This document shows, piece by piece, positions 17,715-18,443 of a stretch of DNA of 64,000 nt. A model generated the notes under the pieces. It was not told the DNA's origin. It did no database searches and saw only the letters and a list, made by a program, of their open reading frames with translations. The DNA comes from Eledone cirrhosa (taxonomy: Eukaryota): positions 104,532,001-104,596,000 of the forward strand of contig OZ024743.1 of the NCBI GenBank assembly GCA_964016885.1, in the 5' to 3' direction. The first letter of the stretch is position 1. Each line of letters begins with the position of its first letter. Position numbers and translations under genes: made by a program.

Positions 17715-18443
17715 TAAAAGACGTAAAATAAGAAAATTTAAAAAAAATTAAAAAAAATTAACTTACTTACTAAAATTTTCACTCCAACTAATTAGTTTCT
17801 GCAATGGGATAAAGACAGTTACGTAATCAAACTATCGAGAATTCATTGCGTCATCAGGGAGTCTATTCTCAGCTAAGTCTCCAGGCAATGCGCGGACACT
17901 GGGGACTCATATAAAAATAATAATAATTCGGTAGATGGAACAGCTAGCGGGGACTGGATTCCGTGTACTGAAAATCACACTGTCTCTGGTCAAACGGCAA
18001 ATTCTAAAGAATCAATCACGTGACACTGAGGCTAGTCGGTAGGAGTGGGATGGTAAGATGACAGATGCCTACTATCACACCAATAAGTTAGTAGTGGTTT
18101 TGGCAGGTTTGCTCGACAAATAAGTAATTTGGAGATAAATATAGAGAATTTAGTATATCTACTAACATATGCGTACGGATGTACGCTAATGCCAGCACAT
18201 ACACAGGTTATGTCATAGTACCTAGGTGGTTCAATGCAGGAGGATGCAGAACAATAATATAAGAGACGTAAAATAAAAAAATAAAAAAAAAATTTTATAA
18301 ATTAACTTACTTACTAAAATTTTCACTCCAACTAATTAGTTTCTGCAATGGGATAAAGACAGTTACGTAATCAAACTATCGAGAATTCATTGCGTCATCA
18401 GGGAGTACATCCGTACGCATATGTTAGTAGATATACTAAATTC
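17715..18443 (-). mobile_element. ORF-less retrozyme-like element: 544-bp unit bounded by two hammerheads
   Basis: Direct repeat with period 544. Minus-strand HHRs at 17781-17862 and 18325-18406: ACTCC-CTGATGA-CGCAATG...CATTGCA-GAAA-CTAATTAG-TT-GGAGT. Confidence 0.8.

Follow-up and report, generated by a model that had tools for sequence, protein, structure and literature searches.

A non-coding 544-nt hammerhead family with the insertion anatomy of a Penelope-like element

Non-coding units lying between type I hammerhead ribozymes have been described in animals as non-LTR retrozymes (Cervera and de la Pena 2020, PMC7229834), and a recent preprint describes animal retrozymes, with units of 51-972 bp, as non-autonomous derivatives of Penelope-like elements (PLEs), and reports cleavage in vitro for one of nine Xenopus dimers and none for the other eight (Li, Clavereau and Pollet 2026, bioRxiv 10.64898/2026.07.22.740005). 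PLE inserts carry direct repeats, beside which lie truncated copies in inverted orientation, and only one of their ends bears a tail (PMC8557442; PMC3846280), the tails described being 30-40 bp long; elements of the Hydra clade, which is defined by a CxCX5C linker (PMC8557442), target (TA)n (PMC8557442; PMC3846280). In AT-rich DNA, PLE proteins nick both strands, and reverse transcription, as shown in vitro for one PLE, begins at two sites inside the RNA, which mark the limits of the tail (PMC11167929); circular templates have been proposed to account for the copying of more than one unit (PMC4209133). Here we describe a 544-nt unit, and the insert that contains it, in a 64-kb window (the whole stretch of Eledone cirrhosa DNA that was analysed) of AT-rich animal DNA rich in microsatellites.

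The insert and its two ends

The insert at 17716-18446 and its flanks comprise the following features:

17641-17716, no strand: target tract (TA)38, the target site on the 3' side of the direct arm
17716-17785, minus strand: 3' extension of the direct arm, reaching from the second cut to the short terminus (End A), which lies 70 nt past the cut
17781-17862, minus strand: 3' type I hammerhead, predicted cut between 17786 and 17785
17786-18329, minus strand: 544-nt cut-to-cut monomer, non-coding, 37.5% GC
17863-18142, minus strand: unique 3' body of the 544-nt unit, contiguous in another diverged copy and partly so in a second organism
18143-18260, minus strand: 117-nt "tail" from the internal End A site (about 18260) to the End B site (18143), the latter 187 nt past the cut
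18153-18204, minus strand: 52-nt hairpin, conserved and strand-specific, ending 10 nt before End B; putative PLE-protein binding site
18325-18406, minus strand: 5' type I hammerhead, predicted cut between 18330 and 18329
18405-18446, plus strand: inverted 5'-truncated copy ("cap") of 42 nt that ends at End B, head-to-head with the direct arm at a 2-nt overlap
18442-18592, no strand: (TC)42 extending from End B, followed by (TA)32

An earlier note on this DNA had claimed two identical minus-strand hammerheads 544 nt apart with a palindromic stem III and no ORF between them, and all of this is borne out. On the minus strand 18299-18406 repeats 17755-17862 exactly over 108 nt at an offset of 544, within a wider similarity of about 148 nt at 94.6%. 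Each copy is a type I hammerhead with stem I ACTCC/GGAGT, the core CUGAUGA, GAA, and a GUU site; helix III of both is the palindrome ACTAATTAGT, and helix II of both is long and interrupted. The predicted cuts after 18330 and 17786 would give a 544-nt monomer that is without protein-coding capacity, the longest stop-free stretch in six frames being 89 codons and no ORF remnant being evident in any of them; the RT/GIY-YIG ORF of an autonomous PLE was sought in the unit and not found. Folded as a circle, the monomer reaches a predicted -119 kcal/mol (z -3.4 against 60 shuffles) with 58% of its bases paired. A relaxed hammerhead scan returned 13 rows from the 64-kb window versus 0-2 each (4 in total) from 30 block shuffles; Rfam reported no match that reached gathering score anywhere in the window and, within 16600-18600, no hammerhead at E<=10, and the Rfam miRNA matches in the window were discarded as fold-back artefacts below gathering score.

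Beyond what had been noticed before, the first pair of helix II, at its base, is a C-A mismatch in both hammerheads. The layout of the hammerheads has parallels in published Hydra PLE ribozymes, and mismatches at the helix II base also occur there (T-T in three rows of the PMC8557442 supplement) and in an active axolotl ribozyme, so that the C-A mismatch alone does not mean a dead ribozyme. The idea that it arose by CpG decay of a C-G pair is unsupported, position 17800 being absent among the 40 family differences listed.

The direct arm begins at the first base of hammerhead stem I (18406), and the copy as a whole amounts to 1.27 units. Its 5' end is capped by inverted sequence, as the earlier note had observed: 18405-18446 is the reverse complement of 18143-18184 over 42 nt (39/39 by BLAST inside the query). 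The outer ends of the insert are End A, which lies 70 nt past the second cut and is followed by (TA)38, and End B, reached by way of the cap and 187 nt past the first cut; no target site duplication (TSD) is discernible within the microsatellite flanks. The insert thus has the hammerhead-bearing direct repeats and the adjacent inverted 5'-truncated copy by which PLE insertions are recognised, and inserts of this family sit in (TA)n, in agreement with the target preference of the Hydra clade.

Relatives in the window and in sequencing data

Two further inserts in the window serve for comparison:

57560-57776, plus strand: hammerhead-less relative of the 544-nt unit, with inverted arm 57560-57617 and direct arm 57610-57776
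21113-23896, plus strand: 5'-truncated Hydra-clade PLE of another family

The former is the diverged fold-back that the earlier note had linked to the unit, and the relationship holds: 57610-57786 is 78% identical to the 544-nt unit over 192 columns. Its inverted arm ends at End A and then (TA)n; its direct arm runs from 7 nt past the cut site to End B, and then into (CT)n and (AT)n; and the whole is centred on the palindrome AAAATTTT. The two ends are therefore identical to those of 17716-18446, with the roles of the arms swapped, and both inserts of the family have the 117-nt tail at one end only (End A on one side, End B on the other). That no hammerhead is present in the relative had escaped the earlier note.

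The second hammerhead family of the window, found at 4711-5257, 17362-17640, 21113-23896, and 33034-33131 and probably the same as family E of the earlier note, is the terminal repeat (pLTR) of a Hydra-clade PLE. It shares no sequence with the 544-nt unit, and the earlier description of the latter as an ORF-less, repeated, retrozyme-like family unrelated to the other hammerhead family stands. The insert at 21113-23896 contains an endonuclease remnant (22377-22826), a hammerhead repeat (23791-23861), and the short end (23896), and its inverted arm of roughly 1 kb ends at the long end (21113). The remnant is of GIY-YIG type with one in-frame stop, matches the C-terminus of an RT-endonuclease protein at 43% identity, and carries the CxCX5C linker; because Pfam recognised neither the endonuclease remnants nor the protein P0002, the clade call draws on motifs and published Hydra sequences. 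Since the insert plan is the same, the plan of 17716-18446 is that of a recognisable PLE 3 kb away, despite no shared sequence.

We could not find an autonomous element sharing the repeat of the 544-nt unit within the 64-kb window. Nor does the terminal repeat of the unit match the two Hydra remnants there, and six short motifs of the unit have no match in the available part of the PMC8557442 supplement; a 60-aa endonuclease query returned no homologue, and a metagenome scan with a Hydra-type protein returned one locus (L001) without a usable hammerhead. Assignment of the 544-nt family to the Hydra clade is circumstantial: it draws on the target, the ribozyme layout, and the presence of two Hydra remnants in the window. 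A Naiad partner was set aside, Naiads being reported to be without canonical hammerheads.

We compared the ends of six two-armed inserts chosen because they carry, or are related to, hammerheads (a sample that excludes the other fold-backs of the window): 17716-18446 and 57560-57776; 4711-5257, 17362-17640, and 21113-23896 of the second family; and the related 16911-17325. All six, from three families, pair a short end on one arm with a long end on its partner, with a microsatellite after each, and the distances from cut to short and long end in the three families are 70/187, 43/132, and 52/151 nt.

Other repeats are found nearby. A 5'-truncated Hydra-type PLE with a frameshifted CxCX5C endonuclease remnant lies between (TA)n tracts at 29481-30330, and a hammerhead-like motif at 30262-30301 is probably inactive, its core reading CUGAAUA. 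The fold-back at 16911-17325 contains two head-to-head hammerheads (16955-17020 on the minus strand, 17117-17182 on the plus strand), and its long end is about 99 nt past its short end. Solitary type I hammerheads of other families occur at 16673-16728, 46650-46704, and 56968-57025, each near (TA)n; fold-backs in which no hammerhead was detected, several of them adjoining (TA)n, occur at 4549-4690, 10778-11071, 13382-13662, 14295-14667, 16045-16359, and 31534-31819, and may be stubs left by other PLE families. Genes of non-LTR retrotransposons have left remnants (Pfam matches to RVT_1 or DUF6451) at 11678-12286, 32213-32764, and 54917-55957. Finally, a very abundant repeat of about 190-260 nt forms tandem and inverted clusters (35977-37978, 50203-50398, 53735-54528, 55442-55649, and 61427-61620); it may be a tRNA-headed SINE, and such clustering is atypical of SINEs. 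A SINE family of the window may also resemble those of cephalopods.

Part of the 544-nt unit is carried by 15 of the 18 listed sequencing runs, and at least half of its sampled words by three, all from one sample, possibly the one from which the window derives; runs X6-X15 have small shares of it, and the 18 include no RNA run and have no bearing on expression. Four runs were aligned to the unit: X1, X4, X5 (from a second organism, B), and X16 (raw RAD reads bearing the same species label). Run X1 has 1232 contigs on the unit, covering 26 of 29 bins, and the share that runs on into unlike sequence is 0 by the tool's measure; run X16 has 7809 reads on the unit, 311 at 99% or more, 1904 at 95-99%, 2906 at 90-95%, and 2688 below 90%. 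The family is therefore repeated and diverged in the genome, although these counts give no copy number. One X4 contig covers 17863-18150 with 27 differences, and the body is thus contiguous in another copy; organism B, which has most of the body, carries 17835-18031, 18125-18150, and 18227-18406, with 91 letters between the first two blocks versus 93 in the window. Among those listed, which are short, no contig spans the whole unit; a further 1269 pieces, 224 loose ends, and 150 differences lie beyond the listing. A second X4 contig departs from the unit at 18143 into a microsatellite, and is an independent instance of End B; another departs at 18321, 8 nt beyond the cut site, into (TA)n. In X4, 18217-18341 has 3-4 times the summed depth of the body, which would fit many short stubs, but summed depth is not copy number.

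Peaks of read ends in X16 were rejected as element termini because five of the six listed fall on the first or last base of AATT and so are restriction ends; low-agreement loose ends in X16 were rejected likewise. Exact-motif scans gave 0 matches in metagenome contigs and 0 in viral contigs, and searches of the literature on octopus and cephalopod Penelope elements and retrozymes, and on twin priming by Penelope, returned no description of the family, Repbase and Dfam lying outside the scope of that search. Direct arms often start at or beside the first base of hammerhead stem I (18406, 5036/5063, and 56968, and also in organism B), a position where transcription may start or where reverse transcription may tend to stop.

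Template, ribozyme folding, and mode of insertion

The region 18120-18329 folds with a z of -4.4, mostly owing to the hairpin at 18153-18204, for which we calculate -27.4 kcal/mol on the minus strand versus -12.4 on the other; the relative at 57560-57776 keeps this hairpin despite a 10-nt deletion (-19.7 versus -7.4 kcal/mol). The hairpin stems contain 6 of the 40 listed family differences. Five of the six, taken alone, keep or create a pair (expected by chance at 1/3, 1/3, 1/3, 1/3, and 2/3), and the sixth pairs only with the variant of its partner, the phase of the two being unseen. The hairpin is a candidate binding site for a PLE protein.

Rare alleles bear on the template. The cap and the internal End B region are identical, including position 18177, at which some 99% of reads carry another letter (623 of 628, and 688 of 697). 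The two hammerheads share a U at 17834/18378, a position that has C in 154 of 286 reads, in 97 of 111 reads, and, at 17834, in 91% of X1 depth; the commonest hammerhead variant is this change, which converts an inner G-U pair of helix II to G-C. On the simplest reading, cap and direct arm were copied from one RNA template and, since the direct arm of about 690 nt (1.27 units) passes the ribozyme twice, that template was probably circular or multimeric. A pure single circular template, however, predicts an identical tail, and against it counts the T-rich stretch 17716-17755, which differs from its internal copy at 18260-18298 in about 7 of 40 columns compared with 0 of 108 adjoining ones (Fisher p 7e-5, in a low-complexity alignment) and is closer to both arms of the relative at 57560-57776 than to that internal copy. 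Slippage at initiation, a template switch, or a homopolymer assembly error could each have produced the divergence.

The earlier note had proposed that a read-through transcript of this copy could release the 544-nt monomer, and here our folding models point the other way. The monomeric ribozyme fold in isolation has a modelled ensemble probability of 0.0007; the palindromic stem III could pair between copies (predicted duplex -9 kcal/mol), as is expected of ribozymes that act as dimers (PMC4209133). When the full insert is modelled, cap and body pair in a 42-bp duplex. With the cap present the cost of the dimeric ribozyme fold is 38.7 kcal/mol, compared with 7.7 once the cap is removed (monomeric folds, 6-10), all of these being figures from equilibrium models that include neither protein nor co-transcriptional folding; the Anolis PLE ribozyme is reported to cleave only in the presence of its own protein (PMC11167929). 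Because the cap would pair with the body and block the dimeric ribozyme, we judge the 17716-18446 copy a poor source of monomer and probably a dead-end product; the models suggest cap-less tandems elsewhere as source copies. Junction reads at the GUU site, which the earlier note had recommended, cannot discriminate circles from genomic tandems, because the junction of a circle is the same as the genomic repeat over 108 nt and genomic tandems would mimic it.

We consider it probable that 17716-18446 is one insertion of a non-autonomous PLE, belonging to an animal non-LTR retrozyme family with a 544-nt unit and moved in trans by a PLE RT/GIY-YIG protein, most likely of the (TA)n-targeting Hydra clade. 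What is observed is the anatomy of the insert, the repeated family, the two recurrent termini, the conserved hairpin, and the shared rare alleles. A plausible course of events would be that i) a tandem source copy is transcribed, and its paired hammerheads excise a monomer that is possibly ligated into a circle; ii) the PLE protein binds near the hairpin at 18153-18204, introduces nicks into the two strands of a (TA)n tract, and initiates cDNA synthesis from opposite strands at two sites within the RNA; iii) the cDNA primed at End A would have run for about 690 nt, or 1.27 units, so that the hammerhead was copied twice, and the one primed at End B would have halted after 42 nt, inside the hairpin; iv) the two cDNAs would have been joined head-to-head at the 2-nt overlap; and v) (CT)n would grow from the TTCTCT end at End B, where it measures 42, 12, and about 3 units in three copies. 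Linear cut RNA would yield short stubs such as 57560-57776. Evidence against this explanation includes the tail of 117 nt versus the 30-40 bp described, the monomer fold probability of 0.0007, the failure of eight of nine Xenopus dimers to cleave in vitro, the divergent tail, the lack of a listed contig across the whole unit, and the want of a partner element in the window.

A stricter version can be offered only tentatively, and we rather doubt it as a whole: the insert would directly record rolling reverse transcription by a Hydra-clade PLE dimer that had a single circular 544-nt retrozyme RNA as its template, with one conserved hairpin bound, two fixed priming sites 117 nt apart on opposite target strands, and a stutter at End B that seeds (CT)n. 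If true, this would supply a cis-element that is both compact and mapped, and would link retrozyme circles with PLE mechanics at the nucleotide level.

The earlier note had set a retrozyme against a tandem pLTR of an autonomous element. The unit is retrozyme-like, as was proposed, but the opposition falls away, because animal retrozymes are themselves reported as non-autonomous PLE derivatives (bioRxiv 10.64898/2026.07.22.740005) and the insert has PLE anatomy. What could still be argued is that the unit comprises nothing more than the termini of an autonomous PLE, left as a partial tandem or by internal deletion, and that the 544-nt spacing does not belong to an independently amplified family. 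PLE insertions are typically truncated partial tandems (PMC8557442), family E in the window is such a case, the raised X4 depth over 18217-18341 is what many pLTR stubs would give, and one organism-B contig has unrelated sequence upstream of 18406; yet from End B to the next hammerhead the body is contiguous in an X4 copy (27 differences in 287 nt), its length is kept in organism B, no share of X1 contigs runs into unlike sequence, and no frame retains an evident ORF remnant, all of which makes this account unlikely.

Could the locus itself nonetheless be read through, both ribozymes cut, and a 544-nt RNA be freed and circularised? Both cores are intact and identical, the modelled inter-copy duplex of stem III would favour pairing, and by analogy abundant circles are reported from mussel and coral retrozymes (PMC7229834); but the predicted cap-body duplex and its folding cost, the near-private changes at 18177 and 18198 in this copy, and the poor in vitro cleavage of PLE-type hammerheads (PMC11167929, PMC4209133) together leave us thinking it most improbable. 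An origin wholly at the DNA level, through local duplication and fold-back repair of a single hammerhead repeat with neither RNA circle nor multimer, strikes us as very remote indeed: it would account for the rare alleles common to the two hammerheads and the cap, in a window crowded with fold-back repeats and microsatellites, but independent inserts end at the same two sites, other copies, and a second organism, keep the body in colinear order, and the same plan flanks a PLE endonuclease remnant. We therefore retain the insertion of a non-autonomous PLE as the best explanation.

Comparison with described elements

The 544-nt family could be a small test case for two questions: do PLE proteins really mobilise animal retrozymes, and does circular RNA serve as the template? 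The marks of PLE integration on an ORF-less unit (tail, inverted cap, and TA target), the copied length of more than one unit, and the conserved hairpin at the priming end all lend themselves to genome-wide counts and to tests in vitro.

Like animal non-LTR retrozymes, the family has type I hammerheads one unit apart, is non-coding, low in GC, and repeated, and co-occurs with PLEs. Its unit of 544 nt compares with 170-400 nt in PMC7229834 and falls within the 51-972 bp of the 2026 preprint; it differs in its PLE-type ribozyme with a long helix II, in the 1.27 units present at the locus, and in the inverted cap and two-ended tail, which are not found in the retrozyme descriptions as far as the available text of those papers goes. 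With the endonuclease-bearing PLEs of the Hydra clade (Craig et al. 2021, PMC8557442) it shares the hammerhead near the 3' end, the short palindromic helix III, the (TA)n targets, and the partial tandem with an inverted truncated copy and a tail at one end; the unit differs from these in lacking an RT/GIY-YIG ORF and in its 117-nt tail. Poseidon of Anolis (Frangieh et al. 2024, PMC11167929) is alike in that two internal start sites of reverse transcription downstream of the hammerhead define the tail, and in that cutting and extension at AT-rich sites involve both DNA strands; Poseidon, however, is autonomous, belongs to another clade, and has its sites 30-40 nt apart within the ORF, whereas the putative sites described here were deduced from insertion ends. 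Plant LTR retrozymes (2026 preprint; PMC7229834) likewise have a non-coding unit of similar size between two hammerheads, but those are of type III, and accompanied by a PBS and PPT, 4-bp TSDs, and a GC content above 55%, compared with type I hammerheads, 37.5% GC, and microsatellite flanks in the 544-nt unit. Judged by its sequence, the unit combines the features of animal non-LTR retrozymes with those of PLE insertions. The class of element is already known and the family new to it, and the locus therefore mainly adds a family to that class.
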